Assembly (NCBI GenBank): GCA_964016885.1 | Contig: OZ024740.1 | Span: 347,510,001 to 347,574,000, forward strand | DNA: 64,000 bases | Reading direction: 5' to 3' | Source: Eledone cirrhosa | Lineage: Eukaryota | Shown: one piece after another, positions 1,873-56,012 of the stretch | Layout of the letters: every line of letters begins with the position of its first letter | Position numbering within the stretch: position 1 is the first letter of the stretch | Program-made: the position numbers and the translations under genes | The notes under the pieces: generated by a model | Databases searched by the model: none | Seen by the model: the letters and a program-made list of their open reading frames with translations, nothing else | Told to the model about the DNA's origin: nothing

Positions 1873-2400
1873 TATATATATACAATGAGTGGAAGAACAT
1901 TCGGAATGAAAGTGTTAACTTTTAGTGCATAATGTGATGAAGTAAATACTAAATATGTGCGTGATACATAAACTTCGGTTTTACCTTACAACAAAACGAA
2001 ATATGCCTATTGTCTATTGATTGTTGGGATTCCACATATTGACATCGTTGTGGATGGAATTAATACTGGTAGATATTTCATCCTCTACGAAATGGGTGAG
2101 ATTTTAAAAATGGTTGAATGGTGTTAATAGTAGAATAGGCATAAACATCTATTAGGATTAAACTATCAGTTTGACAATCCCTTTCGTCCTACAAGATTAT
2201 TATGCCAATTCTACTATTAACACCATTCAACCATTCCTTTCAAAGGGTCATGACCTCAACTAAAGTGTATTACTTTTCATCTTAACACCATATGAAAAAA
2301 ACAATTTGATTCGTTAGTTCTTCAAACACCTTGAAATAAGGACATGATACTAACATACTACTAATTCTGAATAAAATTATTATTGAATAAAATTATATTA

Positions 2401-2545
2401 TTATTGCTTTTGAAAACAGCTGGTGATATGCATGTAAGTAAAAATTCTCTTTATCTGATATTTTGTAACTAACCTTACATAGATCAATAAAGGAGTATAA
2501 CTACAATGTATTATCATCATCTAGAAACGATCGTAAAGCAGTGAA
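2401..2545 (+). ncRNA. Type-I hammerhead, U3-A8 core variant, 107-nt helix-II domain
   Basis: TTATTGCTT-TTGAAAA-...TGGTGATA...TATCATCA...-GAAA-CGATCG-TA-AAGCAGTGA. Confidence 0.7.
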
Positions 2546-2586
2546 GTATATCTCTAATGACTTGATATTTTATTTCATTGTTTTAA

Positions 2587-2656
<70 letters not shown>

Positions 2657-2850: not shown

Positions 2851-2943
2851 CAATATAAACAGTTTTATAGATAAATAGATTCGACATACAGTGAAGTATA
2901 TCTCTAATGACTTGATATTTTATTTCATTGTTTTAACTTATAT

Positions 2944-14175: not shown

Positions 14176-15496
14176 TTATAGCCCTAGTCTACCCCCCCCC
14201 CCCGGGTCATTATGGGGTTTGAGGGCGAGGTAAGTCCTACGCAATCTATGTTTACATGCAGTAACCAGTTCATCTTTCTTGTTTAGGAGTTGGTCCGTCG
14301 AAAACAGCATTTGAAAAGTTTCCTCCGAGCATAAATTGCACGGACGGCGTCCTCCCGTGTAAGAATTGGCTCTGGACAGTAATCTCCAAGTGAGATCATA
14401 GGTGATGTTGTTGTCCTTGAGGTCCCATATGTGGCCCGAAAGTGTAGTGGCGTGACGCCGGGCCGGGTTTCGGAAGGTATGTCTATGTTGGTATAGCCGG
14501 GTCTTGAAGTCACATGCGGTAAGTCCTATATAGGCTTTGTTGGAGGTATCCGTCCTCACGTTGCACTGGTAGATCACATTACGGTCTCTGCATCTATTGT
14601 CGAGTGGGCAAATAGATCTATCCGGGCAATTACACCTCCTGGTCGGTTCTCCACTGCTATTTAGGTTATTTCTGCCATCGGGGTTGAGTTTTTTGTTGTT
14701 AGAGGAGACGATGTTTTGTGCGAAGTTTGGTGTAGTGCTGTAAGAGAGTTTGATGGTATTTTTGTTAATTATGTTGTGGTAGCGGTGTTGTAATGGGAAG
14801 TGTTTTTCAATGAGCCTAAAGAATAGTTTCCCGATGGGAGTAGTCACCTCTGCGTTGTGGGGAGGATTGAACCATGTTACATTGCGTGAGCGGCGGTGTC
14901 TCCTGCTGGTTCCGCTAATGGGAGCTGGACAGTAGGATATTTCCTCCCGGAAACCACTCCGCTTGAGGGCCTGGTTGTAATAAGGCGCATGTTCATCGAA
15001 TATCCGCTCATTAGCTGACAAACGGGATATGCGGAGGGAGATGTTTTTGACCAGGTTGTTTGTGATGTTCCTAGGATGGTTTGATCGGCGGTGGATGTAG
15101 TGCAGATTGTCATTAGGTTTCCTGTATGGGTAGTACAGGTCGTTTTCGAGGTCGAGGGTCACGTCCAGGAAGTTTACTCGGGTCAGGGACGTTTGTAGGG
15201 TTATTTTAAATCCCCAGTCGCGGAAGAATCTGATTAATTGTTTCCGGACCCGATCTGTACTACTGGGGTTGTACCCTTTAAGGGTAAGGAGCCCATCATC
15301 ACGGTACAATCCACCACCGAATGCAGGAAACATATCAGTGAGTTTGGCTATTAGGAATAATCCTATAAGATCAGTGACCTCCGCCGAATCCGTGGCGCCC
15401 ATGCTGACGTCGAAGGGTGAGTCGGGAGCTCTTTTTATCCATTTAGAGTCGTCAAAGAGTAAGACTGTCTTCCTGGCGTGGAGGAGGATTTTTCTT
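14176..15496 (-). CDS. PLE RT C-half/thumb + Cys-rich linker + GIY-YIG endonuclease (5'-truncated, stop-free ~440 codons)
   Basis: [52 protein letters not shown]...YIGLT, CNLCSEE. The N-terminal 110 aa of the tracked ORF is microsatellite read-through. Confidence 0.9.
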
Positions 15497-15944
<448 letters not shown>

Positions 15945-16018
15945 AGGGTCACTGATGAAGGACCTACTTTTTCACATGCCCCACCATTTGCAACGGGCAG
16001 CCTATTATTTTCATATTT

Positions 16019-18652: not shown

Positions 18653-19459
18653 TGAATATAAAAAAGATATAAACACAGATATATACATATATGTGTTCAA
18701 ATCGTAGGGGACCAGATTTGCTAGGGTGAAGAAAATACTAACTATGAACAATAGGGTTTGCCAGACTCAATTTAAAAGAAATATGCCATGTGCGTTATTT
18801 TATATACGCACACAATTCAGTCTTCTCAGATACTTAGAAGTGAAGAGCAAAAGAATTGGTCATTCCGTTTCACCGAATTGGCGAAACTATATATATATGT
18901 ATGTATGTATATATATATATATATATATAGTTAAATCTTAGACAGGAACAAAACCAGAGAGGCAGTACAAATATGAGTTTATTAGGTTCACGCTTTTGAG
19001 ATGGTGGGGGGGGGGGCATATATATATATAGTAATAATAATAAATGTGAAGTGAAGACTAAAATCCAAGGAGGGCTCGATAAGGATAAATATATATGTAT
19101 CAAATATATAAGAAACAGAACAAATATTTATTAAAATAACAGATTAAAGTTTAAGCAACGTATCGCTACTTTCACCCTTAACGGGATCTTCAGAAGATCC
19201 CGTTAAGGCTGAAAGCAACGATTCTTTGCTTAAACTTCAATCTGTCATTTTATTATATATATATGCAAGAGATGTCAACATGAATGGACCTGTTATTTTT
19301 ATCTCAAGACATTTTTCCAATTCCAACCCGCCCGTCCCCTCAATCTATTTTATTTCTCATTCTTTCTTCTGGTGAAGGACAAACTATATCAAGCGTTAAT
19401 AACCTAATATATACCTTCCAGATACTGTACCGATTGTGTTGTTATTCCTGTTTACCTGT

Positions 19460-19856: not shown

Positions 19857-19866
<10 letters not shown>

Positions 19867-19978
19867 ATTTAGAGTTTTCACTCAGGAGTCAAATACAATT
19901 ATTTAGCTCTAAGAAATATTTCTTAGAGCTAAATAATTGTATTTGACTCCTGAGTGAAAACTCTAAATTATATTATAT
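19857..19978. repeat. Perfect loop-less 122-bp palindrome
   Basis: Centre AAGAAAT|ATTTCTT at 19917/19918; arms are exact reverse complements. Confidence 0.92.
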
Positions 19979-20534: not shown

Positions 20535-20544
<10 letters not shown>

Positions 20545-20938
20545 TAAACGGAATAGAAAATGCTGACAAATTGTTCACAGTTGAAAAATGGTTTAATTAG
20601 GAATAAAAGAGTATTAGTGATTGTATGGGTTAGTATTCAGTTGTGGTTTAAAGTTTTTAAGTTTTTACCGGTTGCGCATTTCTAAATGCTTTTCAAAAAT
20701 AATTTTGAGATAGAGTGTCCGTGCTGTTTGCTCTGATCTGAGCAAACAGCACGGACACTCTATCTCAAAATTATTTTTGAAAAGCATTTAGAAATGCGCA
20801 ACCGGTAAAAACTTAAAAACTTTAAACCACAACTGAATACTAACCCATACAATCACTAATACTCTTTTATTCCTAATTAAACCATTTTTCAACTGTGAAC
20901 AATTTGTCAGCATTTTCTATTCCGTTTACCAATATATA
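20535..20938. repeat. ~400-bp near-perfect palindrome of a pLTR fragment
   Basis: Centre GATC 20735-20738. Right arm holds TTGAAAA-GCATT taga AATGC-GCAA-CCGG-TA (20777-20807), a damaged minimal HHR. Confidence 0.92.
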
Positions 20939-21066: not shown

Positions 21067-24000
21067 GTCCTGGGTATGACATTAAACTACATCCAGTGGC
21101 AAGGCTCCAGTTCGGGAGTTCAGGAGTTGTGGGGAATGTGGAGTTACCCCTTAGTTGTCTTGACTCCCAGCTCTGCCCTGGCCCGGGGTGGTAGTACCTG
21201 TTAGGGCTCCATTTATGGGTTAAATAACTACCTTATTCGAGTGGCGCCGGTAAGGTATTGTCAGCCATTGAAAAGAAATATGGAGAGTCGATCTAACAGC
21301 AGTAGGGTTAGAGCCCCTAATTACACTGTCAAGGAGCAGCCTGGTCGTTATGACACTGCTGGCTTAGAGGGCCAATGGATGATGGATCAGCTGTCTCTGA
21401 GACAAATATAAAGAATGCAGTTTTGTCCTGCAGAAGAGCCATCAAAATGGGCACTTTGAATGTGAGGACTATTCGGACGCTGGAGAAGAGAGAGGAGTTG
21501 GGACATCTGTTCGAGGAGAGTGGTATGCAGATACTTGCGATCCAAGAACACAGGATCCTACACGATGAGCTCGTGAGGAGTGTGATGATCGGGAAGAGGA
21601 GCCAGCTCATCACTACATCGGCAGTGAAGAACACAACAAATGCTGCAGTAGGAGGAGTGGGTTTTGTGTTCAGTGCAAAAACCAATCTGTTGGTGAGGGA
21701 AATAATGCCTATCTCCTCGCGAGTGTTGAGGGTGACCTTCAATGGAAACCCAAGACTGACAGTCATCTCAGCCTATAGTCCAACCGAGGGGGACAGTGAT
21801 ATGAGTGCGGAAGAGTTCCATGAGGAGGTGTGTAGAGCTGTCAACACCACTCAGGCACACAATATCCTGCTTGTTTTGGGGGACTTCAATGCACATCTGA
21901 GTAAGGAGGGCAGTGAAGATCCTTGCTGGTACTTCCATAACAACACCAATCGAAATGAAAGACTACTGAGAGACACCCTGCTGGAGGCGAACTTGATGGC
22001 GACCAACCTAAGGTTTAGGAAGAATCTGGGGAAGATGGGGACCTACATCTCGGATATGCACCTGTCCAAGTCCCAGATTGATTTCATTCTGGTGAGGAAA
22101 AAGTGGCGGAATAGTGTTCTGAACACAGAACCAGACAGCTATTTCAGTACACTGGGTAGTGACCACCGGCTTGTTATGAGTGAGGTCCGGGTGAGCTTAA
22201 GAAAGAGCAAGGCTCGGCCCCGGAGAGCAATCTATGACTGGGGAGCTTTCAAGGAAGATGATAAGCTACAGGAGAGGTTCAAAGTGGAAGTGAGAAACAG
22301 GTTTAGTGCCCTGTGTGGAGTGTCAGAGGAGAGAGAGATTGGATGGACTGAGGAGAGTGTGACGAGGAGGTACGGGCACTTCACCAATGCAGTGGCGGTG
22401 GCAAGTGAAACCCTGTTGCCGAGGAAAAAGAACAAAGGGAAGCACGTCAGCTCTGCAATCCCAAAAGTGTGTGCAGCCAGAGAACGCCTGAAAGCTGCCA
22501 AGGACCAATTCTATGCTGATCCTACGGAGGAAAGGATGGAGACTGTGGAGGTGATGAGGGAAGAACTCTGTACCGCTTACACTGAGGTCAGAGAGGAGGC
22601 ACTGATAGAGAAGATCAGAAGTGTGGAGAGAGCGGTTGACAGATCTGGATGTAAGGAGAGCTGGATGATCATCAACGAGATCACAGGGAGGAAGAGAAGG
22701 TGTTCGAGTCAGATCCAGGGAACGGGGCCCGAGGATAGGAAGAGGAAATGGCTAGACCATTTTAGGACCCTACTAGAAGAGCCACCCCCCACAGCCCAGA
22801 GCACTGGGGAGATCAGGCAGATGTTTGAGGAACTGGATGTTGAGACAGAGCCCTTCACCAAAGAGGAGCTTCAGAGAGCCAAGAAGAGAATCAAGGAGGG
22901 CAAGGCTCATGGAGAAGATGGAGTGGCATCAGAGGTGATGAAGAGGTGTGATTTTGATGATATCATCCTGGGGTTCTGTAACGGGGCACTGGAGAAAGGA
23001 GTTGCCCCGAATCAGTGGAGGATCAGTAACATCGTCCCAGTGCCAAAGAAGGGAGATCTCTCTAACACCAAAACTACAGGGGGATCTCACTGACGTCACT
23101 TGTGGCAAAGACCCTCAACAGGATGATTTTTAACAGGATCCAGCCTGAGATGGAGAAGAAGCTCAGGGACAACCAGAACGGCTTCAGAGAGGGTAGATCA
23201 ACCACCAGTCACATTCTGATGCTGAGGAGGATATTAGAAGGAGCTAGAGCAAAGTGCCTTCCTGCGGTCATGGTTTTCATTGACTTTAGGAAGGCCTTTG
23301 ATTCTGTGGATCGTTACTGCCTGATGAAGATCTTACAGGCTTATGGAATCCCCAAGAAGATAGTGGACCTGATATCACTGCTCTACACCAACACCAAATC
23401 CCAAGTCATTACACCTGATGGGATGACAGAGTTCTTTGAGATACTGGCTGGAGTGCTCCAGGGAGATGCATTGGCTCCCTACCTTTTTATCATCGTAGTG
23501 GACTATTGTATGCGCATTGCACTGGAGAAACACCAGGACTCTGGCTTTTCTGTGGCACCGGCTCAGAGCAGGAGAGTTAGGGCGAAAAGGTATCGGATGC
23601 TGAATTTGCCGACGACATAGTTTTGGTGACAAATACAGTGAAGGAGGCAGAGGATTTGATGCGGGAGGTTGAGACTGTGTTGATGAGTGTGGGGCTGAGA
23701 ATGAATGAGACTAAAACAAAATATCTGGTAGAGAATGTTTAGAAGCCAGAGGGGATAACTAATATAGGCGGGAATCCGCTAGAATTGGTTCAGGGCTTCC
23801 TGTATTTGGGAGCAAAGATTGGGAATACGGAAGATGATGTGGTTGAGAGGATGAGCAAATCCTGGGCGGCGTGCCACAGCTTGAGATCGGTGTGGAAGTC
23901 GGACCTTCGTAGAGACCTGAAAATCCGCCTCTTAATTGCTGTAGTGGAGTCTGTGCTGCTGTATGGATCTGAGACTTGGACACTGACCAAGAAACTCACT

Positions 24001-24364
24001 CAGATGGTGGATGGGTGCTACACGAGAATGCTGAGGATGGCTTTGATCATTAATCAGTATACACTGCAGATGAAAAACTCAGAGCTGTATGGGAACATCC
24101 AAAAAGTCAGCTTAAAAGTGACACAGAGGAGACTGAGGTTAGCTGGACATGCTCACCGACATCCAGAGTTGACATTGCACTCAGTGCTCCTTTGGGAGCC
24201 CCTACATGGACACACTAGAAGAGGAAGACCAAGGTTAACGTATGTTGATGCCCTAAGGACAGACACTGGTCTATTGGAGACGCAGGACACGGCAGCGATA
24301 ATGAGGAACAGAGACCGCTGGAGAGAACTCGTCCATGGATCTCGGGAATTTTACCCACCTTAGA
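21067..24364 (+). mobile_element. Full-length RTE/RTEX-type LINE with 11-bp TSD
   Basis: TSD ATAGTAATAAT at 21056-21066 and 24365-24375; ~300-bp 5' UTR; APE+RT ORF ending at TAG 24361-24363. Confidence 0.9.
21375..24363 (+). pseudogene. APE endonuclease-reverse transcriptase ORF with 2 frameshifts and 1 stop
   Basis: GTLNVRT, LAIQEHR, GDFNAH, SDH; IVPVPKKGD/NYRGISL, QNGFREGRST, FIDFRKAFDSV, GVLQGD, EFADD, LLYGSETW, LAGH. Breaks near 23070, 23590 and 23740. Confidence 0.92.
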
Positions 24365-24452
24365 ATAGTAATAATAATAAATTTGAAGACTAAAATTCAA
24401 AGAGCGCTCGATAAGGATAAATATATATCAAATATATAAGAACCGTAGAGCT

Positions 24453-25400
24453 AATTACCTCGACGTTACCCTCAATTTATCGAATGGCTTGTATTACCCG
24501 TATAGAAAGCCGAATGATACGCTTAATTACATAAGTAAGCATTCTAACCATCCTGCCAGCATAACCAAGAACCTGGTAAGAAACGTTTCTTTGAGGCTTT
24601 CCCGTCTATCTACTAACGAGCATATTTTCAACGACCATTCCACATATTACAATGAAGCTCTTGCTCGGAGTGGATTTGTCGATAAGGTAGCATATACAGA
24701 GTACGAGAATACACCTAGAAGAAATAGATCCCGGCGCATTATATGGTATAACCCACCATATAATATGGAGGTGGCCACACCATTAGCTAAGATCCTTCTA
24801 TCCCTTATTACGAAGCATTTGCCCCTACACGTAAATATAGTAAATTTTTTAATAGAAATACTATTAAAATGTGTTACTCTACGACTCCTAACCTTGCACA
24901 TAACATCACAGCTTCAAATTTAGCTAAACTACCTAGCCGTAGGATCACGTGCAACCCTGTAGTTAGTACTAACTGTAATTGTAGGAATCGGGTTGATTGC
25001 CCCCTATCCGGTAAATGCCTCTCTAGTAACATTGTCTACAAATGTAAGGTTGAAACACCCACGTCCCGTAGGGCCTATATAGGGTTAACCGCCAATAGAT
25101 TCAAGCAGCGTCGTTACATGCATACCCATTCTTTTCGTTACCCTTTAAGAAGGAATATGACGTCACTTTCAGCTTATATCTGGAGGCTAAAAGACAACCA
25201 CACCCAATATAAGTTACACTGGGAGATCCTAGCTAGATCGTTAAACGGAAATAAAAGACCATGTGACCTCTGCGCCGCTGAGGCCCTGGAAATACTCTAC
25301 GCCAAAGACAACATCTTAAACAAAAGAAATCTGAGGCAATTTCGGCTTGTAAACATAAATTGCACAGAACTTTCCTATATTACAGCCCCACATTATACCC
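24453..25400 (+). pseudogene. Naiad-type PLE fragment: thumb + GIY-YIG, frameshifted
   Basis: [49 protein letters not shown]...AYIGLT, PCDLC. Confidence 0.88.
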
Positions 25401-26355
25401 TAACGGATAGTACGATCTATACGCGGATATTTTACGTCTTGTTGTGGTAGCTAAGTATATGTTATGTTTATACCATTACTTATTTGCATAGGTAAGTATA
25501 TATTACCTGTATGTTTTGTGAAGGTACGTATACTTTCTCGTACGTATATTTGATTGTATATGTTATGGCGTATATTTTATATATCCTGGTACATATGCTT
25601 TTGGTTATGTGTATACGTAAGTTTTGCGTCTGTGTGAGTATGCGGGTTCGTACGTATGTAGGCTGTGTGTATATGTGTACTTCGTGTTTTGGTTGACGTA
25701 CGTCTCCGAAAATTTGTGTATTTACATGTAGGTATGTGTGTGCGCTTGTTATATACGTATTTATTTATTTATATACGTTTATTTAATTATTTGTATACAC
25801 GCACGCACACACACACACACAGACACACACACACATATTTATATGTGCGTATATTTGTATACCTATGGCGATTGTTTTCGCGTATGCTTGTGTATGTACG
25901 TATATGGTTGCGTGTATGTATTTATTTAATTTCTGTTACCTCTGTATTTTATTTACTTTATTCTTAACTCTGAAGCCGAGAATCATTCGGTTTCCTAGTT
26001 AGAATTTTAGTCTACGACTTCAGTTATACCATTTACGTGGTTTTGTGTTTGCATGCAATTGTTCTCCACGCTCCACATATGACGTATTATATTCGTTTTT
26101 TCCGTTCATTGCCAGATAACGTCTCTATAAACCACCTAAGAGAATATTAGTCTACGACTTCTTTTATACCATAAACGTGGTTTTGTCTTTGCGTGTAATT
26201 GTTTTTCACCGCTCCAAATAATGACGTATTATATTCGTTTTTTCCCGTTCTTTGCCAGGAAACGTTTCCACGAACCAAAGTATCGTCTTCCTGTCCTCCT
26301 CCGGTTGCAACGTTTTTTGAAATATTCACTTCTGCGTTCACAGATTGACTTTGTT

Positions 26356-26426: not shown

Positions 26427-26494
<68 letters not shown>

Positions 26495-26541
26495 GACGTA
26501 AATAAGAAAGTTATGAAAATTGACTTACTTACTAAAATTTC

Positions 26542-26620
26542 ACTCCAACTAATTAGTTTCTGTAAGGGGATAAATACAGTTACGTAATACCTGTAGAGAA
26601 GCCTTACGTCACCAGGGAGT
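26542..26620 (-). ncRNA. Type-I hammerhead, 48-nt helix-II domain, palindromic helix III
   Basis: ACTCC-CTGGTGA-cGTAAGG...TACAG...CTGTA...CCTTACa-GAAA-CTAATTAG-TT-GGAGT. One core substitution (A6G). Confidence 0.75.
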
Positions 26621-27137
26621 CTATTCTCAGCTAAGCTACCAGGCAATGCGGGGACACTGGAAGCTTACATAACAATAATTCAGTGGATGGAAAAAACCGA
26701 AAAAATCGAGCGGGGCTAGATTCTAAGCACTGAAAAATCCGCTGCCTCCTTGGTCAAGTGGCAAATTCAAAAGAAATAATCACGTGACACTGAGGTTAAC
26801 CAGCTTGGAGTGGGGGTGCTATTAAGACAGAGCCTAGCTACTACTATCAGGCACAGTAGTAATTTGGCAAATTTTGCTCAACAAATAATTTGGAGTAGAA
26901 TATAAAGAATTTATATATCTACCGACATATGTATACAGATGCATACCTAGCTAGCAGATATATATGTTTTGTCTTAGTAACGCTGTAGTTCTATGCAGGT
27001 GAATGCAGAACAATTATATGAAAGACGTAACTAAGAAAGTTATGAAAATTGACTTACTTACTAAAATTTGGAGTGAAATTTTAGTAAGTAAGTCAATTTT
27101 CATAACTTTCTTATATATATATATATTTTCATAACTT

Positions 27138-27582
<445 letters not shown>

Positions 27583-27838: not shown

Positions 27839-28530
27839 CATATATACATACATATATATATACCTATATATACACACACACATACATACACACATACATA
27901 TATATATATGTGCGTACACACGAGCACATAAAGACACATATACACATACACATATATATACACATATATATACATATATATACACATACACCTACATACA
28001 AACATACATATACACAAACAGAAACATACACATATGTACACACATATATACATATATGCACATGCATACACACACACACACACATATATAGGTACATACA
28101 CATACTTACACACACACATAAACATACATATCTATCCATATATATATATATATATATATATATAACGATCGTTTCTAGGATATATATGTGTTAGAATTGG
28201 CATGCATATTCAACAGATCTATGTACAAAATTATACAAAATTATACAAACTATCAAGATTAAATATACATACCAAACACACATATACGCCGTCTTCAGAA
28301 ATAATGAAATATATTTATTGATAATAACAACAATTCAAAATTTCAGGTCCGTTTGGGAACAAAATTGACCAATGAAAATACAAAAGGTTTTATGCAATTT
28401 GGTGTGTGTATATACATTTAACTACCCCGTACACATATTTATACAAAGATGTATGCTCAACATGCATATGCATGCCAAAAAGATGCATGCAAATACAAAA
28501 TTTCAAGGTTAATGTCTCTGTAAGTTTATA

Positions 28531-30090
28531 ATGCACAGGAATGAATACTGGACCAGAAACACATATAGTAATCTATTTGATATTACTATGGGTTCAAGCG
28601 ATTCCGCCCAAATTACTGATCTTGTGGGCCTCTTTCTCCTTTTCAACATAAATGCCTCCTTTCCCCACCTCAAAGGTGGTTTATATCGTGATGACTGTCT
28701 TCTTCTTTCTAACAACCTTAGCCTTTCAGAAATTGAAAAAAACAAAAAACATATTAGAACTTTCCTTAAAGACTATTATAATCTTCATATTACTTTTGAA
28801 AAAACAAGTAAAGTAGTAAATTTCCTAGATATAACTTTAGATTTAGCTACGGGTATCTACCAACCTTACCATAAACCAAACCAAAACTTACATTACATAC
28901 ACTCACAATCTAATCACCCTAAATCTATCCTTAAAAACCTTGCATATAATATATCACTTAGAATTTCTAACCTTTCTTCTAACCAAGATGTATTTGATAA
29001 AAATACGACCTTCTATAACGAAGCTCTAGATAGAAGTGGCCACAAAAATAGATTAGAATATATACCTTCTACTAAAAATACTAAAAGCATACAACCTAAT
29101 ATTACCAACAAACACCAAATGAAAAGTACACACCTAAATGCCACCCACACTATACCCCAAAATACCAAATCTTCTAATATAAAATATAGTAACTCTCAAA
29201 AAACTACTCATCATACAACTCTAATAAATATTAATAATAAAACTCCTAATAAAAAAGATAAAACACCTAAATCTACAAATATAACTAAAAATGGTTGTGG
29301 TGAGATCATTAACATTAATCCTCCTAGTAAACATCACGATACAACCTATAAAAATAATAAAAATAATAAACAACATAGAAACCGTAATAGACGGGTTACT
29401 TGGTATAATGCTCCATTTAATTTACAAATTAAGGATAATATTGCTAAAAAATTTTTTTATATCCTAGAGAAAAACTTCCCGCCAAACCACAAATACCATC
29501 AAATCTTAAATAGGTCTACAGTTAAATTCTCATACTCAACAACAAATAACATAAAACAAAATATAAGTGCCTATAATGCATATAAATGTAAGAAAACCAT
29601 AAGTATACCACCAGTACATCAAATTAACCATAATATCTCCTCAAATACAGAATTAACGAAAGGTTGTAACTGTAGAAACAAAGCAAACTGCCCATTAAAA
29701 GGGAATTGTCTTGTTAACAACATAGTCTATAAATGTAATGTTAAAACTAAAGATTCTATTTGCTCATATATAGGAGCTACCTCTAACAATTTTAAGACAA
29801 GGTTTAATACCCACAAGCATAGTTTTAAAAATGCCGCACTGGCTAATACAACATCTCTAGCAGAAAAAATCAATAGTTATAAAAATAAGAATATAGAATA
29901 TGATTTGACCTGGAGTGTGCTCAAAAGAGCCACCCCTTATCAAAATAATAGAAATGAATGTAGATTATGTTCCCAAGAACTATTTGAAATAATGAAATCT
30001 AAGGATATCCTATTAAATAAACGACAGGAATTAATTATATCGTGTAATCATAAACTAAAAAAAACATTTAAATATTATAAACCTAATTAA
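28531..30090 (+). CDS. PLE RT C-half/thumb + GIY-YIG, 519 aa, 5'-truncated (ATG supplied by the inverted repeat)
   Basis: FDITMGSSDSAQI, GLYRDDCL, NFLDITLDL, PYHKPNQ, SNHP, VTWYNAPF, CNCRNKANCPLKGNC, NIVYKC...SYIGAT, CRLCSQE. Confidence 0.9.
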   Translation: MHRNEYWTRNTYSNLFDITMGSSDSAQITDLVGLFLLFNINASFPHLKGGLYRDDCLLLSNNLSLSEIEKNKKHIRTFLKDYYNLHITFEKTSKVVNFLDITLDLATGIYQPYHKPNQNLHYIHSQSNHPKSILKNLAYNISLRISNLSSNQDVFDKNTTFYNEALDRSGHKNRLEYIPSTKNTKSIQPNITNKHQMKSTHLNATHTIPQNTKSSNIKYSNSQKTTHHTTLININNKTPNKKDKTPKSTNITKNGCGEIININPPSKHHDTTYKNNKNNKQHRNRNRRVTWYNAPFNLQIKDNIAKKFFYILEKNFPPNHKYHQILNRSTVKFSYSTTNNIKQNISAYNAYKCKKTISIPPVHQINHNISSNTELTKGCNCRNKANCPLKGNCLVNNIVYKCNVKTKDSICSYIGATSNNFKTRFNTHKHSFKNAALANTTSLAEKINSYKNKNIEYDLTWSVLKRATPYQNNRNECRLCSQELFEIMKSKDILLNKRQELIISCNHKLKKTFKYYKPN

Positions 30091-34456: not shown

Positions 34457-36068
34457 TCATTTTTTCGTGTTCAGTAGTGGTTTAAATTTTTCAATGAAGA
34501 ATTCTTCTTTATATCTGCGGAAATGTTCGTTATCCGACCATATCTTGAAGAAAGGGAAGATTGTGAATTTTCCCTTCCCGCATGATGCAAAGTGTGCGCT
34601 ACATGTGGTATTTCTGACTGTGGGGTCTTTAATCTGTTGTTTATGTACCCGGACTCTATCATGTAATCCCGTTCCGGTTTCCCCAATGTAATACTCTTTA
34701 CACTGTGGACATGTTGCGCAATATATTAGGTTTTTCGTTTTGCAGTTCATGTTAGCATTGACCTTGAAATTATCATGGTTTTTGAAAGACAACTGTTTGC
34801 CCTCTTCGATGAGTTCACAGGTTCCACATCTAGGGTCCCCGCATTTCGTCACTTGCATTGATTCCATGTTGGTCGTAAATTTTGCCTTGGTAATTAGTTT
34901 TTTAAGGTTGGGTGCTTGGCGTCTGCTATAAATTATCTGTGTGTTTTTTAAGAGTGCATTCATTTTGGTAGATTGCTGTAGAATCGGGAGATACTGCTTA
35001 GCAGTTTTCACAATGTTGATGTGTCCCTGGGTTGTGAGTGATGACAAAAGAGATAGCAGAGTTTTCTTTTTTATGTTGTGGGTTTGGTTTTCTCAGTGTT
35101 GTTATTGGGATGTTCTTAGCCTTGGAGATGGCTGCGTTGATGAGTTTCATCGGGTATTCTTGTTTTTTAAGGAATTTTTTCAGGTCACATAATCTTTTTT
35201 CTTGTAGTACGGGGTGTGTTGCTATAGTGCAGATGCGCCTTGCCATGTTGAAGGGAATGTTCCTTTTCGTATGTGAGGGGTGTGCTGACCGGAAATTTAA
35301 GTATTGGTGTGTGTCAGTGGGTTTGCAAAATAGGTCCGTTATGATATTTTCCCCTTCTTTAATGATGAGGATATCTAGAAAGGGCAGTTCCTTTTTGTTA
35401 CATTCCATAGTGAATTGTATAGCTTCATGAAGCCTGTTTAGGATCGAATAAAATTTTTGTAGGTCTGTTTGGCTTCTGTTCCAGAAGATGAAGCAGTCAT
35501 CTAGGTAACGTTTCCAGTTTTTATTAATGTAGAAGGCGAAGTCGTGACTGAATGTTATCTGTAGTTGGGAATATAATTTTGCCTCTAAGTGACCCATAAC
35601 GAGCGTTGCATATGTAGGGGCCACTTTGGTACCCATGGCTGTTCCTTTTATTTGTAGATAAAGTTCGTTGTCAAAGAGGAAGTGGTTGTTTTCCAATACT
35701 AATTTAAGTCCTTCCAAGATGAATTCTTTGGGGAATCTTTCTGAAATGTGACTTGAGTGTTTTGTAATCCAGAAGTCCACAGCTTCAATCCCTAGGTCGT
35801 GTGGGATGTTAGTGTACAGGCTTATTACATCAAAACTGACTAGGATTGTATCCTGGTGTACTTTTTGGGGATATAGTTAAGGAATTCCATATCATCTCTG
35901 ATGTAGCTTGGAACTTTTTTACATAGGGCTTTGAGTATGATGTCTAATAGGTTGCTTAGACGTTGTGTGCTTGAGGCTGGGCCAGCAATAATGGGGCGTA
36001 ATTTTAAGTCTGTCGGTTTTGGTGCTTCGATGTATGATGTATTTTTCCCTTTTATGTTGTTATATTCC
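34457..36068 (-). pseudogene. Neptune-type PLE RT + Cys motif + GIY-YIG, 2 frameshifts, 5'-truncated
   Basis: LRPIIAG, SFDVISLYTNIP, GTAMGTKVAPTYA, WKRYLDDCF, KPTDTHQYL..S.HP, CGDPRCGTC, NLIYCATC...YIGETG. Confidence 0.92.
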
Positions 36069-36758: not shown

Positions 36759-37618
36759 GTTATTCCGGGTTGAATCGGAGGTAACCACAGTAAGTAAGGT
36801 ACTCAATACATAGCAGAGTATAATAGTTTTAATATAGATGAGATTCTACAGGACTAGAACTGTTTCATTCATTAGAAATCATCAGGAATCTGGGTATCAA
36901 AAAATAAATATGGTATTTATAGGTCTCTACAAGTGGTAGGAGAGGGTGGGGAGTGGGATGGGTGCAGGTCATTGGTTGATAGAGAAGGGAATTCATTAAA
37001 GGCTAATTCTACATAGCTATAGTTAATTTATATTTATTTATGTTTTTAGAGTAACAAAGGCAGACAGAAATCTATAAACAAGTTCCGGATGGCATACCAT
37101 TCCTTGTCAATAAGTTTCTCTTAAGCTAGCAGATGTCTATAAAATCAGTGGGGGGTCATTCATGCTCGATAGAATTAAAGAAAAGGGAGATTCTTTAAAA
37201 GCTAAAGTCATTAAGTTCTGCTAAGTGACAAAGGTCTAGGGAATTCTGCAGACAGATTCAAAATACTGAGTGCATATCTTACTATTATCTTCGAACTTCT
37301 CTTAAACTAATCAACAATATGCCAAATCAACAGACACATTCACAAAAAAACAAAAAAACCCAAATAAAGCCAAAAAAACAGAAAAACAAAAAAAACCACA
37401 CCTAAAAAAAACCAAAAAAACACACATACTCACTCACACACTTACGCGCAACCATAAACACACACATAAACACAAATACACACATAAAAACACACACACA
37501 TATATAAAAAAAGTATATAAATATATACAAATATATATTCATGTACACGCACATACATACACACATACATACATACATACATATATAAAAATACATATAC
37601 ACATATACATACGCACAC

Positions 37619-37706
<88 letters not shown>

Positions 37707-37814
37707 ACATACATATACATATATACACATATATATATATATACACACATACACACACACACACATACATACATATATATATACATATATATATACACAC
37801 ACACATATATATAC

Positions 37815-37855
<41 letters not shown>

Positions 37856-37861
37856 CATACA

Positions 37862-37895
<34 letters not shown>

Positions 37896-38038
37896 CACAC
37901 ACACACGGATACACACACACATACACATACATACACACATACACACATATATATACACAAGTAAATACACTCACACGCATACATACAAACACGAGTATAC
38001 ATATGTATAAATATCTATACACACACACATACACACAC

Positions 38039-38097
<59 letters not shown>

Positions 38098-38449
38098 CAT
38101 ATACACACATACATACACACACACATACACATATATACACATACATATACATATATATACATATACATATATATACATACATATATATATACATGCACAT
38201 ATACATATACATATATATATATATATATACACACATACATACATACACACACACATACATACATACATATATATATATATCTCTCTTTATGTGCCTGTGT
38301 ATATGCGTATATTTATTGAGTACCTATTTACTTGTATGTGTATATATTTGTTTGTATATGTGTATATGTGTATGTGTTGTGTGTGTATATATATATGTAT
38401 GTGTATGTGTATATATATATGTATATGTATATATATATATATGTATATA

Positions 38450-38494
<45 letters not shown>

Positions 38495-38634
38495 ATGTAT
38501 ATATGTGTATATATATATATGTTTGTGTGAATACGTGTTTTATGTGTGTATATTTATGCAGGTATATGTTTGTATGTGTCTGTATTTATGTATGTATGTA
38601 TGTATGTGTGTGTATGTATGTATATATATGTGTG

Positions 38635-38669
<35 letters not shown>

Positions 38670-38859
38670 ATATATATATATGTATGTGTATGTATATGTA
38701 TGTGTATGTATATGTGTGTGTATGTATGTGTATGTATATGTATGTTTGTATATGTGTGTGTGTATATATTTGTCTGTATATATGTGTATATGTGTATATG
38801 TATGTGTATGTGTGTGTATATATATATATATATGTATGTGTATATATATGTATATATGG

Positions 38860-38899
<40 letters not shown>

Positions 38900-38982
38900 G
38901 TGTGTATATATATATATATATATGTGTGTATGTATATATATATATATATACGTGTGCGTGTGCGTATGTGTGTATATGTGTG

Positions 38983-39021
<39 letters not shown>

Positions 39022-39265
39022 ATTTGTATGTGTTTGTGTGTATGTATATGTATATATATGTGTGTATGTGTGTGTATCTGTGAGTGTATATGTACATATA
39101 TGTGTGTGTGTGTATGTACGTATGTGTATGTATATGTATGTGTATGTGTATATGCATGCGTGTGTATATATATATATATGTATATATATGTATATATATG
39201 TATATGTGTATGTATGTGTATGTGTATCTGTGTGTATGTATGTATTTGTATGTGTCTGTGTATAT

Positions 39266-39367
<102 letters not shown>

Positions 39368-39445
39368 GTGCATGAGAGAGAGAATGTGTGTGTGTATATA
39401 TATTTTGTGTGTGGGTGTGTGTATGTGTGTATGCACGCGTGTGTG

Positions 39446-39490
<45 letters not shown>

Positions 39491-39506
39491 ATGTGTGTGT
39501 GTATGC

Positions 39507-39560
<54 letters not shown>

Positions 39561-39665
39561 GTGTGTATGTATATATGTGTGTGTATTTGTGCGTTATATC
39601 TCTGTATATATATGTGTATATTTATGTATAGGTCTGTGTATGCATGTGTATGTTTGTGTATGTAT

Positions 39666-39736
<71 letters not shown>

Positions 39737-39737
39737 C

Positions 39738-39773
<36 letters not shown>

Positions 39774-39984
39774 TTGTATGTGTGTGTTTAGAGATATATA
39801 TATATATATGTATGTATGTATGTGTGTGTGTATGTATGTATGTGTGTATATATATATATATATATATGTATATGTATATGTGCATGTATATATATATGTA
39901 TGTATGTATATATATGTATATGTATATATATGTATATGTATGTGTATATATGTGTATGTGTGTGTGTATGTATGTGTGTATATG

Positions 39985-40033
<49 letters not shown>

Positions 40034-40176
40034 GTGTGTGTATGTGTGTGTGTATAGATATTTATACATATGTATACTCGTGTTTGTATGTATGCGTGTG
40101 AGTGTATTTACTTGTGTATATATATGTGTGTATGTGTGTATGTATGTGTATGTGTGTGTGTATCCGTGTGTGTGTG

Positions 40177-40207
<31 letters not shown>

Positions 40208-40212
40208 GTATG

Positions 40213-40253
<41 letters not shown>

Positions 40254-40359
40254 GTATATATATGTGTGTGTGTATATATATATGTATATATATATGTATG
40301 TATGTGTGTGTGTGTGTATGTGTGTATATATATATATGTGTATATATGTATATGTATGT

Positions 40360-40441
<82 letters not shown>

Positions 40442-41138
40442 GTGTGCGTATGTATATGTGTATATGTATTTTTATATATGTATGTATGTATGTATGTGTG
40501 TATGTATGTGCGTGTACATGAATATATATTTGTATATATTTATATACTTTTTTTATATATGTGTGTGTGTTTTTATGTGTGTATTTGTGTTTATGTGTGT
40601 GTTTATGGTTGCGCGTAAGTGTGTGAGTGAGTATGTGTGTTTTTTTGGTTTTTTTTAGGTGTGGTTTTTTTTGTTTTTCTGTTTTTTTGGCTTTATTTGG
40701 GTTTTTTTGTTTTTTTGTGAATGTGTCTGTTGATTTGGCATATTGTTGATTAGTTTAAGAGAAGTTCGAAGATAATAGTAAGATATGCACTCAGTATTTT
40801 GAATCTGTCTGCAGAATTCCCTAGACCTTTGTCACTTAGCAGAACTTAATGACTTTAGCTTTTAAAGAATCTCCCTTTTCTTTAATTCTATCGAGCATGA
40901 ATGACCCCCCACTGATTTTATAGACATCTGCTAGCTTAAGAGAAACTTATTGACAAGGAATGGTATGCCATCCGGAACTTGTTTATAGATTTCTGTCTGC
41001 CTTTGTTACTCTAAAAACATAAATAAATATAAATTAACTATAGCTATGTAGAATTAGCCTTTAATGAATTCCCTTCTCTATCAACCAATGACCTGCACCC
41101 ATCCCACTCCCCACCCTCTCCTACCACTTGTAGAGACC

Positions 41139-41146
41139 TATAAATA
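41139..41146 (+). promoter_or_regulatory. Candidate pLTR TATA box (CCAAT at 41085-41089)
   Basis: CCTATAAATACC ~25 nt upstream of the hammerhead; motif evidence only. Confidence 0.4.
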
Positions 41147-41168
41147 CCATATTTATTTTTTGATACCC

Positions 41169-41219
41169 AGATTCCTGATGATTTCTAATGAATGAAACAG
41201 TTCTAGTCCTGTAGAATCT
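41169..41219 (+). ncRNA. Canonical-core type-I hammerhead, GUA triplet (mirror copy 36841-36891, -)
   Basis: AGATTC-CTGATGA-tTTC taat GAAt-GAAA-CAG ttctagtc CTG-TA-GAATCT. Confidence 0.88.
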
Positions 41220-41340
41220 CATCTATATTAAAACTATATATATATATATATATATTGTTATACTTTGGGAGGGTCATGTTGCCAATAAGAAACACACTCT
41301 CCAGGTGCTTTCACTCCAATTTATTATAAATTAAATTTAT

Positions 41341-42282
41341 AAAATTTATGATCCCGATGGCTGGGCTAAAGTCGTTTCGACACCTGTTTCTGGACTATTA
41401 CCCAGTCTACTACCCTAAGTATTGAGTACTCTGGTGTGTTATGGTCCATCTGGTTCTTTACCACACCTCCTTCGTTATATATATATGTATATATATGTAT
41501 ATATATATATATATATATCGTTTCTGAATTTGTTTAGCAAGATTCTTTATCTCAAAACGTCTGTTGAAACCGATATTGTTATACATTGGGAGGGTCATGT
41601 TGCCAATAAGAAACACACGCACCAGTTGCTTTCACTCCAATTTATTATAAATTAAATTTATAAATTTAAGTATTTATAAATTTCCGGTTGGTTGGTTGGT
41701 TGGTTCCACAACCGGACGGTTTTTCATATATTGTCCAAGTTCTTTCGTCACACATTATGTGACCTCTTCAGTGACTGGGGATTCTTTTCTTTGTTTTATG
41801 CTTCTGCTTTGTTCGGTCCTACGCCGTCTTGTTTTGTGTGTGTTGACAACAGTCACTGAAGAGGTCACAGAATGTGTGACGAAAGAACTTTGACACTATA
41901 TGAACAACCGTCCGGTTGTGGAACCGGCCAACCAACCAACCGAAAATTTATAAATTCTTAAATTTATAAATTTAATTTATAATAAATTGGAGTGAAAGCA
42001 ACTGGTGCGTGTGTTTCTTATTGGCAACATGACCCTCCCAAAGTATAACAATATCGGTTTCAACAGACGTTTTCAGATAAAGAATCTTGCTAAACAAATT
42101 CAGAAACGATATATATATATATATTCATATATATACATATATATATAACGAAGGAGGTGTGGTAAGGAACCAGATGGACCATAACGCACCAGAGTACTCA
42201 ATGCTTAGGGTAGTAGACTGGGTAATAGTCCAGAAATAGGTGTCGAAACGACTTGAGCCCAGCCATCGGGGTCATACATTTT
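41341..42282. repeat. Inverted repeat, ~435-bp composite arms (41341-41777 / 41850-42282)
   Basis: Arms are diverged reverse complements, each containing pLTR family B, a (TA)n tract and pLTR family C. Confidence 0.9.
41852..41894 (+). ncRNA. Minimal hammerhead motif (family C; related GTCACA..TGTGAC-GAAAGAAC at ~54680-54712)
   Basis: GTCA-CTGAAGA-gGTCACA gaatg TGTGAC-GAAA-GAAC-TT-TGAC. Confidence 0.65.
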
Positions 42283-42435: not shown

Positions 42436-43478
42436 GGGAAGAAGACGCACGAGGTGACGGAGGTCATGAAATCGCTCCCGTAAGTTTTGAATTTTTAACA
42501 TATTTAAACCATTTGTGAAATAACAACTCTTAGTACAAATGCTACGTAAAGCACCCGGCTTGAGCCCCAAAAAATTCGGACCCAAAATATATTGTTATAA
42601 GGCTCAAATATTCAAATATTCAACTTTGTATTGTACACTGTATATCCAAAAAAGAAAATGGCTATAAATGGAAGAAGAACCCCCCCCCCCCCTCCTCCTC
42701 TGTATACACTATATAGAACAGCCAAACTCACCAACACCAGAAACTAGATACACCACCCACCCTATCACCTGTGTACACTAAACCACCACCGATCACTACG
42801 GCCATCATTACAACCATTATCCCATCACCGCCGCCACCACCCCTTCACTCCTTCACTGCTGCCACCGCTACAGCACCATCGCTACAGTAATACGGTCACA
42901 TCACCGCCACCACTGCCTCGGTATCGACATCACCACCACCACTGTCTCAGTATCGCTACCGCCGCCAGTCTCCCACTTCTTCTTTTAGCTGGCTGCTGCC
43001 ACCACATTATAGAATCCCTACTGCTAAAAAAGAGGAAGGCATCAAAATATATAGATAGACTCAAAAGAAAAAAGAAAAAATAAACAACAAAAGCAGCACA
43101 GCAACAACAGTAAAAAACGAGAAAAACAGAGAAAAACAAAAACAAAAAAAGAAACCCCCAAAACGTAAAGAAAATAAGAATGAAGAGAGAGGCAGGCGGA
43201 CGGACAGAGAAGAGGGGGGAAAAAGTAAAACTTAAAAAACAAAAACTAAGTCAGACATTCGAATACTACATTACAATGAAACTTATGCTTATTCATTTTT
43301 GGGGCCCTTTCTGCCCGTGTGTTTGTTTGTTTATGTGTGTCCGTATACAGCGTGGTGATAATGCCACACAAGGGCCAAGTGGGATGGCGGATCCACAGAT
43401 GGCTATGTAAACATACATTCGCCAATCCTCGATAAGAGTGTTTAAATATCGAACATAAACAGTTCGAATAACGGTGAA

Positions 43479-46400
43479 ATGGAGACTAGAACGTCATGTG
43501 ACAGACTCTCACCCAACAGGTGCCCCCTGGCTCAGCAGCAGGAACCTGACTGTCAACGAAATACTGCTGATGTTGGAGGAAGAAGAAGAAGGAAAGGGGC
43601 CAGAACCAACTGGACGAAAGAATTGAATAGAACTGTTATGCAATGCTACCTGAAAAGTAACCCCAAGGAGAGGGGCTACAGGAGACGGATGCATAACATC
43701 TGGAACGAGATTGGTTTATTTAAATTAGATGAACAAAAATTGGCCGGGCAGGCTCGGGTAATAAGAACTAATGGGTGGATAAGCGAGCTGGAACTGGAGG
43801 AACTGAGCAGAGAGAATGGCTTGGAGATGGCGGGTGTAGTATGCCAGACAAGCGAGCCGGCGGGAAATGAAGGTGAGGAGGTCCTGAGAGCGGAGGAACC
43901 ACCCGAAGCAGACAATGATCTGAATACTGAGATAAATAATACCTGGAACAGAGATACGGCCACTGAGGAGATGAATGCTGACGGGCTAGGACAAGATTCG
44001 GTTGACATCCTAAATTTAGTGGTAGATGAGTTGAACAATGATAGTGGGAGACCTATGAACCTAAGATTTGTAGACAGGAAAAAGTTAAAAGAAACAACAG
44101 CTAAGGTAAACAAAGTCATCCCATACCTTGAGGCGAGGAGTCTTCACCAGTGCAACAATATCCTCAAAGCAACAGCAAATACGGTGAGGAAACTACTTGG
44201 TATAAAAGCGAGAGGAAACAACAGACAAGAAAGAGCAGAGCCGTGGTGGAAGAAGCGACTGAGTGGGCAAATCGGGGAAATGAGAAATGACATAGGAAAG
44301 CTTGAGTCACTACTGAATGGGACACTAAAAAACATAGGCACTAAAAATAGACTGGAAATAAAATACAAAACTAGGAGTAAAAAGCTAAATATTATCATAG
44401 AGGAATTGAAGCAACGCATTGTAGCAAAGAGTGCCAAAATCAGGCGATACGAGAACAGAGTCAGTCAGTATAAACAGAACCGCATGTTCGACAACAACCA
44501 GAAGATGCTGTTTGGACAGCTTGAGGGGAAAGAAAGAGGCACCGACTTGATCCCTGGGGCGGAACAAGCTAAAACATTCTGGAGAGGAATATGGGAGCAG
44601 GATGTTAGACACAATGCCCAGGCAGGGTGGATTGAGACAGTACAGAGGGAGATCGGTGAGCAGGCACAGCAACAGACTGATTTGAGTATCACAGTTGAAA
44701 CTCTTAAGGGGCAAGCCAAAAAACTAACCAACTGGAAATCACCAGGCCCAGATGGTGTGCAGGGGTATTGGATTAAACATTTAACATCCCTCCACCCGAA
44801 GCTGACGGCCATGTTCAATGACTGCTTGGTGTCGGGTGAGGTGCCAGAGTGGTTGACAAAAGGTACCACAGTTCTGATAATGAAAGACCGAATCAAGGGT
44901 AATGATGTTACCAACTATAGACCTATCACATGTCTGCCCGTAATGTGGAAACTGTTGACGAGCATTGTGTCTGAGGAAATCTACCATCACCTCCACACAA
45001 ACAACTTGTTGCCGGACGAACAGAAAGGATGCCGAAAGAAGTCACGTGGTACAAAGGACCAGTTGCTTATTGATAAGATGGTAATGGGGAATTGCAGGAG
45101 GAGACACACTGATCTTGCCATGGGATGGATAGACTACAGAAAGGCATTTGACATGGTGCCTCATTCCTGGATCACCAAAAGCCTGGAGATCTTCAGGGTG
45201 GCAGATAACATCAGAGAGTTGCTGGGCAGGAGTATGGGGTCCTGGGAGACAGAGTTGACATCAACTGGAGTATCCTTGGGAAGCGTGAAGATCAAGAGAG
45301 GTATCTTCCAGGGAGATAGCCTGTCCCCTCTGTTGTTTGTCCTTGCCCTGATGCCCTTGACCATTATGCTGCGAAAAGTGAGAGCAGGATACAAGTTGGG
45401 AAGGGGAGAGCTTACCATCAATCACCTCCTCTTCATGGACGATCTTAAGCTCTTCGGGAAAAGTGAGAAGGAGTTGGATGTGCTTGTTGACACTGTCCGT
45501 ATTTTCAGCAGTGATATATGTATGCAGTTTGGTATTGGTAAATGTGGAGTCATTGTGATGAGGAGGGGTAGGTTGAGCAGAAGTAACGGGATCCAGATAC
45601 CAACAGGTGAGATGATAAAGGAAATTGACTCTGAGGAAGGATACAAGTATTTGGGCGTTCTGGAGGCTGATGGCATAAAGAACAAAAAAATGAAGGAATT
45701 GTTAAGAACTGAATACATTCGGAGAGTAAGGAGCGTATTGAAGTCACATCTGAACAGCAGAAATGCCATAAGCGCAGTAAATTCCCGAGCTGTGTCTATT
45801 ATTAGGTACAGTGCGGGAATTCTGAGATGGAATGTTGCTGAACAAAAAGAAATGGATAGGAAGACTAGGAAGCTATTGACTATCTACAACATGTTCCACA
45901 AGAGGAGTGATGTCGATAGACTCTACCTAAGGAGATCTGAGGGTGGAAGAGGTCTTATCAGCATAGAGGACTGTGTTCAGATGGAGAAAAACAACCTATA
46001 CAAATACGTGACCTATAGTAAGGAGCCAATGCTCAGAGCTGTACTGAAGGAGGGGAGAGTAGGCCAGGGGATACCCAAGGAGGAAATAACATCAAGGAGG
46101 AAGAGCAGCCTTAAGGGAAAATCCCTTCATAGTACCTTCTTTGAGAAAACTGAATTTAGAGATCCACAGACATGGAACTGGTTGAGAAGAGGAGACCTCA
46201 AAAAGGCTACAGAAGGAATGCTAATGGCTGCGCAGGAGCAGGCCCTCAAAACGAAGTGGTTGAAGCACCATATCTACAAGGAGGAGGCTAGCCCACTGTG
46301 CAGGATCTGTGGAGAGAGAGAGGAGACTGTGGCTCACATTGTGTCCGAGTGTAAACACCTAGCCCAGACCCACTATAAGGGCTGGAGACACGATGTGATG

Positions 46401-46871
46401 GGCAGGGTGATCCACTGGCACCTGTGCAAAGTAAACAATCTACCACATTCTGAGAAATGGTATGAGCATAGGCCAGAGGCGGTGATGGAGAACAGTCAGG
46501 TGAAGGTGCTGTGGGATTTTAGGATACAGACGGACAAAAAACTGGAACACAATAGACCTGACCTGGTGGTTGTGGACAAAGAAAAAAGATCGTGCCTGAT
46601 TGTGGATGTGGCCTGCCCGTTCGACACGAGAGTGCAAGAGAAGGAGAGGGAGAAAATTAACCGATACCAGGACCTAAAGTGGGAGGTGAAAAGGATTTGG
46701 AACTGCCATGAAGTCAAAGTGATCCCGATTGTCATAGGCGCACTGGGGACTATCTCCAAAGGTTTCCAGGGATGGTTAAAGAAAATCGGCCCCTTCACGC
46801 TTTTTGGAACGCTTCAAAAGGCATGCTTGCTTGGAACGGCAAGAACCCTCCGATACGTCCTGAATATCTGA
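43479..46871 (+). CDS. Intact R4/Dong-clade non-LTR retrotransposon protein (N-terminal domain, RT, CCHC, RLE), 1130 aa
   Basis: WKSPGPDG, NYRPITCL, EQKGCR, WIDYRKAFD, GIFQGDSLSP, FMDDLKL, GGRGL, CRICG..ET..HIVSEC, RHD, RPDLVV..D...IVDVACP, K..RY, IGALG. (TAA/CAA)n tail 46946-46990. Confidence 0.95.
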   Translation: METRTSCDRLSPNRCPLAQQQEPDCQRNTADVGGRRRRKGARTNWTKELNRTVMQCYLKSNPKERGYRRRMHNIWNEIGLFKLDEQKLAGQARVIRTNGWISELELEELSRENGLEMAGVVCQTSEPAGNEGEEVLRAEEPPEADNDLNTEINNTWNRDTATEEMNADGLGQDSVDILNLVVDELNNDSGRPMNLRFVDRKKLKETTAKVNKVIPYLEARSLHQCNNILKATANTVRKLLGIKARGNNRQERAEPWWKKRLSGQIGEMRNDIGKLESLLNGTLKNIGTKNRLEIKYKTRSKKLNIIIEELKQRIVAKSAKIRRYENRVSQYKQNRMFDNNQKMLFGQLEGKERGTDLIPGAEQAKTFWRGIWEQDVRHNAQAGWIETVQREIGEQAQQQTDLSITVETLKGQAKKLTNWKSPGPDGVQGYWIKHLTSLHPKLTAMFNDCLVSGEVPEWLTKGTTVLIMKDRIKGNDVTNYRPITCLPVMWKLLTSIVSEEIYHHLHTNNLLPDEQKGCRKKSRGTKDQLLIDKMVMGNCRRRHTDLAMGWIDYRKAFDMVPHSWITKSLEIFRVADNIRELLGRSMGSWETELTSTGVSLGSVKIKRGIFQGDSLSPLLFVLALMPLTIMLRKVRAGYKLGRGELTINHLLFMDDLKLFGKSEKELDVLVDTVRIFSSDICMQFGIGKCGVIVMRRGRLSRSNGIQIPTGEMIKEIDSEEGYKYLGVLEADGIKNKKMKELLRTEYIRRVRSVLKSHLNSRNAISAVNSRAVSIIRYSAGILRWNVAEQKEMDRKTRKLLTIYNMFHKRSDVDRLYLRRSEGGRGLISIEDCVQMEKNNLYKYVTYSKEPMLRAVLKEGRVGQGIPKEEITSRRKSSLKGKSLHSTFFEKTEFRDPQTWNWLRRGDLKKATEGMLMAAQEQALKTKWLKHHIYKEEASPLCRICGEREETVAHIVSECKHLAQTHYKGWRHDVMGRVIHWHLCKVNNLPHSEKWYEHRPEAVMENSQVKVLWDFRIQTDKKLEHNRPDLVVVDKEKRSCLIVDVACPFDTRVQEKEREKINRYQDLKWEVKRIWNCHEVKVIPIVIGALGTISKGFQGWLKKIGPFTLFGTLQKACLLGTARTLRYVLNI

Positions 46872-55680: not shown

Positions 55681-56012
<332 letters not shown>

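Follow-up and report, generated by a model that had tools for sequence, protein, structure and literature searches.

Head-to-head copies of a hammerhead-bearing repeat in Eledone cirrhosa and the position of their 5' ends relative to the predicted ribozyme cut

The window, a stretch of 64,000 nt of Eledone cirrhosa (OZ024740.1, positions 347,510,001 to 347,574,000, forward strand; assembly GCA_964016885.1), contains a perfect hairpin that turns where a predicted hammerhead ribozyme would cut its RNA. This raises the question of how inverted copies of such repeats arise, and whether ribozyme-cut RNA has a part in it. The first-pass annotation had proposed that cDNA reached the cut RNA end and primed itself back.

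The hairpin and its repeat

The claimed arms, 27032-27069 and 27076-27113 with the loop GGAGTG, are confirmed as exact reverse complements (38/38 bp), with no further extension possible. The hairpin is the head-to-head joint of two copies of a 529-nt hammerhead-bearing repeat, designated family A. Units are numbered from the base right after the predicted cut (+1), unit positions 528 and 529 being -2 and -1. The features of the locus are:

26430..26491: (TA)n target, left flank
26486..27069, minus strand: long arm, 585 nt, which starts at unit +7, spans a complete 529-nt unit and stops at the short fixed 3' end (+55/61)
26493..27021, minus strand: full 529-nt non-coding unit of family A
26542..26620, minus strand: predicted minimal type I hammerhead, with a 5-bp stem I, an unpaired base before stem II and a palindromic stem III
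26900..27021, minus strand: extension ("tail") that separates the short fixed 3' end (+55/61) from the long one (+176)
27032..27069, minus strand: left hairpin arm, which is the long arm's initial 38 nt (unit +7..+44)
27070..27075, plus strand: loop, unit +1..+6, the first bases past the predicted cut and part of the short arm
27068..27114, plus strand: short inverted arm, 47 nt, unit -2/+1..+45, terminating in (TA)n short of both fixed 3' sites
27114..27271: (TA)n target on the right side; near 27125-27141 it includes a slipped duplicate, 17 nt long, of unit +27..+43

The predicted GUU^ cut of the motif at 26542-26620(-) falls between 26547 and 26546, and the plus strand from 27070 is the sequence downstream of it. 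The match from 27070 stands, but the start was described as lying exactly at the cleavage site, and 2 nt of microhomology (27068-27069) allow the short arm to begin anywhere from -2 to +1. The short arm is without a standard 3' end. The hairpin is more than a chance arrangement because its arms are two copies of one repeat and because the position of the joint is enriched family-wide.

The family A unit has no ORF of at least 120 aa and so does not qualify as an autonomous Penelope-like element, which carries an ORF with reverse transcriptase (RT) and GIY-YIG domains. Across the 3.0-Gb genome, a 28-mer taken from the unit is matched exactly at 584 sites. The repeat combines the non-coding tandem organization of a non-LTR retrozyme, each unit bearing a type I hammerhead, with the Penelope-type partial tandem or pseudo-LTR that carries an inverted 5'-truncated copy, and it has the optional tail, given by its two fixed 3' ends at +55/61 and +176. 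A search for an autonomous partner found none, the ORFs adjoining family A copies belonging to other families. A tandem array of family A spans at least 78 kb (contig C5:84646561-84723944; L159-L174, L267, L268), a possible source locus or satellite.

The Penelope-like minimal type I hammerhead is described as having a conserved core, a helix I of 4-5 bp, a long helix II, an unpaired base after position 9, a palindromic helix III, and G10.1-C11.1 directly before the 3' core (PMC4209133). The family A motif has the core, the helix I length, the long helix II, the unpaired base and the palindromic helix III. Its stem II opens with a G-C pair, and one more unpaired base, an A, stands before the 3' core. 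The base at the cut is U, and stem II has a C-A mismatch at its top. Each core position is conserved in 109-123 of the 123 distinct full units, many of them from the C5 array. The window copy alone has a core change, G for A at 26612, where 123/123 other full units are canonical. The Rfam hammerhead models did not match the motif, and its single-strand fold is no better than shuffles (z -0.11). Site-specific self-cleavage is a prediction, with indirect support from genomic 5' ends. In tandemly repeated variant units at L093:1501-2230, unit 457-529 is deleted and 456 is joined to +1; the part removed is the ribozyme that the two stem I strands enclose.

Position of 5' ends relative to the predicted cut

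For family A 268 loci were fetched, and rates were taken from unbiased sets only: the 100 pattern matches that came first among the 584, each of them on contig C1, and the top matches to queries 3' of +17. Sets requiring the ribozyme or a hairpin, the C5 array and the focal locus were left out of rates. Segments shorter than 25 nt or below 80% identity and in-register splits were dropped, which kept 238 of 315 distinct 5' ends, and 234 after L093 and L108 were counted once and L061 was dropped. Only the cut site was named in advance, and the P values treat 5' ends as independent.

The rate of 5' ends steps up at the predicted cut. Nine ends lie at -2..+2, roughly a fourfold excess (2.2 expected, P = 5e-4; 8 against 2.2 without L093, which has the ribozyme deletion), 5 at +3..+6 (2.3 expected), 13 at +7..+10 (2.4 expected) and 12 at +11..+18 (4.9 expected), so that the tallest peak is at +7..+10, not at +1. 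The 20 nt upstream of this range hold 10 ends (10.6 expected), compared with 39 at -2..+18 (P = 8e-5). The best position for the step is -2, with -8 to +1 nearly as good, a resolution of about 8 nt. The excess is kept more than 250 nt from the start of the arm (11 against 3.5) and is weaker beyond 400 nt (10 against 4.6). An apparent fall to background at +19..+36 was discarded as biased by the choice of copies.

Blunt junctions at exactly +1 are found in L108 (both arms), L137, L217 and L266. Identical junctions occur at unlinked loci with differing flanks (L139-L142, L118/L133, L067/L086, L143/L231).

Since -2..+18 accounts for 39 of 234 ends, those tied to the cut form a class of 5' ends that is genuine yet small. 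The proposed link to the cleavage site therefore holds in part for the sampled family A copies: the rate of ends steps up at the predicted cut and exceeds expectation there and shortly beyond it, but most turn points lie elsewhere. As a general explanation of the fold-back inserts the cut fails, since 195/234 ends (83%) fall outside -2..+18. That majority is what random 5' truncation joined by microhomology would leave, with the focal match to the cut due to chance; most junctions overlap by 1-4 nt, and about a quarter of the -2..+2 ends are expected as background. The step and the excess at a site named beforehand make this reading improbable, as does the lack of any excess at seven other 6-nt palindromes at unit 177-527 (5 against 10.2).

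The ribozyme cut is, on balance, the probable cause of the step. The cDNAs could instead have been joined in the same way with the step near +1 reflecting a transcription start, or a stall of the polymerase at the 3' foot of the uncut fold, a reading helped by the step being placed to within about 8 nt. A stall would agree with the +7 peak, just 3' of stem I. A transcription start would agree with the word at -6..-1, with its A at -4, which we take to be initiator-like, as we do the A at the hotspot of a second family, B. The window holds the following family B features:

2157..2593, plus strand: family B copy, covering the 3' part of a Penelope-like element that has an ORF; cut predicted after 2535, 5'-end hotspot at about 2403
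about 2405-2540, plus strand: predicted U3-A8 hammerhead
2889..2943, plus strand: direct 5'-truncated family B copy, starting at +4 of the predicted cut

The U3-A8 core variant has been reported (PMC4209133). The duplicate at 2889 was rightly placed 3 nt past the 2535 cut; it is a direct copy, not a fold-back. Among 122 ends from the first 100 of 2138 pattern matches, 1 lies at -2..+2 (0.8 expected) and 8 at +1..+18 (3.6 expected). The link to the cut is thus limited in family B to this weak excess, while the main hotspot lies 133 nt upstream, at -135..-121, with 18 ends against 1.8 expected (2403 in the window; homologous sites in L299-L385). The hotspot starts on the initiator-like A just before stem I, about 30 nt before a splice-donor-like word. 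A second, upstream hammerhead was looked for at this hotspot and not seen; a peak at -148 looks like a subfamily alignment break and was set aside. The layout is akin to that of the D. virilis Penelope promoter (PMC2377424), and because of this resemblance the hotspot is likely a transcription start. As a likely RNA start it supports run-off of cDNA at RNA 5' ends and lends little support to cleavage in family B, and it keeps a transcription start possible for family A.

Against a transcription start at the family A step, only 1 end lies at -6..-3 (2.2 expected), whereas family B peaks on its A, and the family A counterpart of the family B hotspot, just 5' of stem I, has a weak excess of its own (22 against 12 at unit 440-465). 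Against a stall, the much more stable fold of family B shows no strong stop at its 3' foot. Taken together, a transcription start or stall is a fairly unlikely source of the step, though less so than random truncation.

Fixed 3' ends recur across families. In A, B and E (L001, L273, L394) the short fixed 3' end is placed 50-61 nt, and the long one 154-178 nt, downstream of the predicted cut, and both fixed ends of family A carry TA-rich bases matching the (TA)n target. In family E the fixed ends are near +52 and +154, and in a small, selected set of about 26 5' ends counted by eye, the interval from -2 to +16 is empty. A near-complete Penelope-like ORF of family E (L386:1527-4212, an 855-codon frame) has a weak GIY-YIG match and no solved-structure match; it was considered as the autonomous partner of family A and rejected, as its ORF belongs to another family. 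Other family E copies have a canonical-looking hammerhead upstream. The ORF pieces of family B have a weak GIY-YIG match (E=2.7e-4), below the Pfam cut-off.

The window contains further perfect or near-perfect inverted repeats (19176-19208, 19857-19978, 20535-20938, 55827-55964, 41522-42105 and 36823-41237), several with hammerhead-like cores; these are probably places where copies of other families meet head to head. Pieces of Penelope-like RT/GIY-YIG ORFs were assigned by similarity to L330/L386 at 14176-15948(-) and 28513-30090(+), and by eye at 24387-25450(+) and 34457-35876(-). There is also a LINE-like RT ORF of 1141 codons at 43446-46871(+) with a 3' duplicate at 46993-47781, an endonuclease-RT LINE-like element in pieces at 21354-24363(+), and a 37/74-nt tandem array at 49782-52096.

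Pairing of the inverted arms

The two arms of a pair end at different fixed 3' sites. Across all sets, 100 of 124 head-to-head pairs of family A join a short end (+55/61) with a long one (+176), 24 have one non-standard end, and none pairs short with short or long with long. Both sides are flanked by (TA)n in 87 of the 100. Family B pairs, also counted in all sets, are short with long in 32/40 and long with long in 1. This strict pairing favours priming from both target strands over self-priming, and twin priming is probable.

Private variants are common to both arms of a pair (1.4 per 100 nt, against 0.4 across loci), which indicates that both arms come from one source. Divergence between arms is 1.8-2.7%. 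A circular template or a blocked primer would leave ends where one cDNA meets the other primer; such ends are not in excess (5 against 9.7; 4 against 8.1), and this signature was rejected. Classical twin priming on one and the same RNA predicts an excess at the other start site; without it, either strand displacement or two RNAs from one source would be needed.

Self-priming has been proposed for Penelope-like elements (PMC3846280). Here it would mean that a cDNA at the RNA 5' end folded back and copied itself, the second arm being cut off at the other fixed site. The private variants common to the arms would follow from this, and so would the co-occurrence of arm 5' ends at the cut (8/71 against about 3.3, Fisher P = 0.002). 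Six loci (L108, L118, L120, L133, L136, L137) have the suitable order: the long-type arm is at -2..+2, the short-type one at +1..+8. The focal locus has it the wrong way round, since its loop belongs to the 47-nt arm, and an arm of that length could not have served as template for the 585-nt one unless the spacer was flipped afterwards. Among the 71 unbiased pairs the short arm lies inside the long one in 34, the long inside the short in 14, and neither is contained in 23. Away from the cut the 5' ends of the arms are uncorrelated (5 against 5.0 within 25 nt, n=48). Tight hairpins are compatible with fold-back in 7 cases, incompatible in 10 and symmetric in 3. A later flip of the spacer or gain or loss of units could rescue some pairs, but not those with non-overlapping arms (L002 and L048 in family A; L280, L309 and L337 in family B). 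The self-primed origin proposed by the first-pass annotation is therefore unlikely, given the focal geometry, the arms that always end at different fixed sites and the 23/71 non-contained pairs.

An inversion made at the DNA level, by fold-back during replication, or an error of assembly is the least probable origin of all. The (TA)n flanks and the slipped duplicate do indicate local instability; reads did not confirm the focal junction, and three contig sets neither confirmed nor contradicted it. The short/long rule largely refutes such an origin, which would not give short with long in 100/100 classifiable pairs, and it fits poorly with arms that have diverged and with the same junction recurring in different flanks.

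A proposed two-primer account and its relation to known elements

The account that is modestly favoured as a whole has two cDNAs primed from opposite (TA)n strands and joined at their 3' ends, some of them having run off ribozyme-cut RNA. Family A would be mobilised in trans by a Penelope-like RT/GIY-YIG protein, which may nick both strands of the (TA)n target and initiate cDNA at two fixed sites, one per target strand. Some cDNAs would run off the 5' end of self-cleaved RNA, with trimming of 0-18 nt, and the two cDNAs would then be joined at their 3' ends, perhaps helped by the 6-nt palindrome at +7. At the focal locus both cDNAs likely reached or neared the ribozyme-cut RNA end.

Inverted repeats with tails are already known for Penelope-like elements, whose inverted pseudo-LTRs with a tail at one end have been ascribed to self-priming or endonuclease resolution (PMC3846280, PMC8557442). 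Family A shares with them partial tandems, an inverted 5'-truncated head-to-head copy, the one-end tail, microsatellite targets and the hammerhead in the repeat. It differs from the elements in these descriptions in having no ORF and an extension of about 115-120 nt rather than 30-40. In vitro, the protein of the Poseidon element PAc from Anolis cuts both strands and extends each of them, initiating at a pair of tail-bounding sites, ribozyme cleavage being dispensable (PMC11167929). PAc and family A both have AT-rich targets and a pair of fixed sites, 3' of the hammerhead cut, at which reverse transcription begins or, in family A, would begin. That study found no reads or RNA ends at the cut, where the genomic 5' ends of family A step up; in the text consulted it does not derive inverted insertions from the two starts.

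Non-LTR retrozymes (PMC7229834, bioRxiv 10.64898/2026.07.22.740005) resemble family A in their non-coding tandem units with one type I hammerhead each, found as dispersed copies and a long array. As far as these sources go, family A is set apart by a minimal instead of a canonical ribozyme, a unit of 529 nt instead of about 300 and its Penelope-type inverted insertions. In twin or dual priming of L1 (PMC2837659, bioRxiv 10.1101/2024.12.14.628481) both target strands likewise prime, and the inverted junction has short microhomology; in family A both primings are at fixed sites, the arms overlap freely and inversion is the common outcome. In R2 an HDV-like ribozyme cut shapes 5' junctions and defines the end of the element (PMC3774820), whereas family A has a tandem RNA in which the cut would explain a minor share of the ends.

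In the open-access main texts searched, no report was found of an excess of Penelope-type 5' junctions at a hammerhead cut, or of strict short with long pairing read as twin priming. The origin of one-side-tailed inverted repeats in Penelope-like elements and the in vivo cutting by weak hammerheads are questions posed in PMC8557442, PMC4209133 and PMC11167929. If the step in 5' ends is read as due to cleavage, it would count as genomic evidence for templating by cut RNA. More broadly, and with rather less assurance than for the account of family A, integration of Penelope-like elements may be an obligate two-primer reaction whose 5' junctions form a fossil map of template RNA 5' ends; in one family the map would record where a minimal hammerhead cleaves in vivo, in another the transcription start. 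Any well-assembled genome with many Penelope-like elements would allow an inexpensive test of the pairing rule and of the step in 5' ends.
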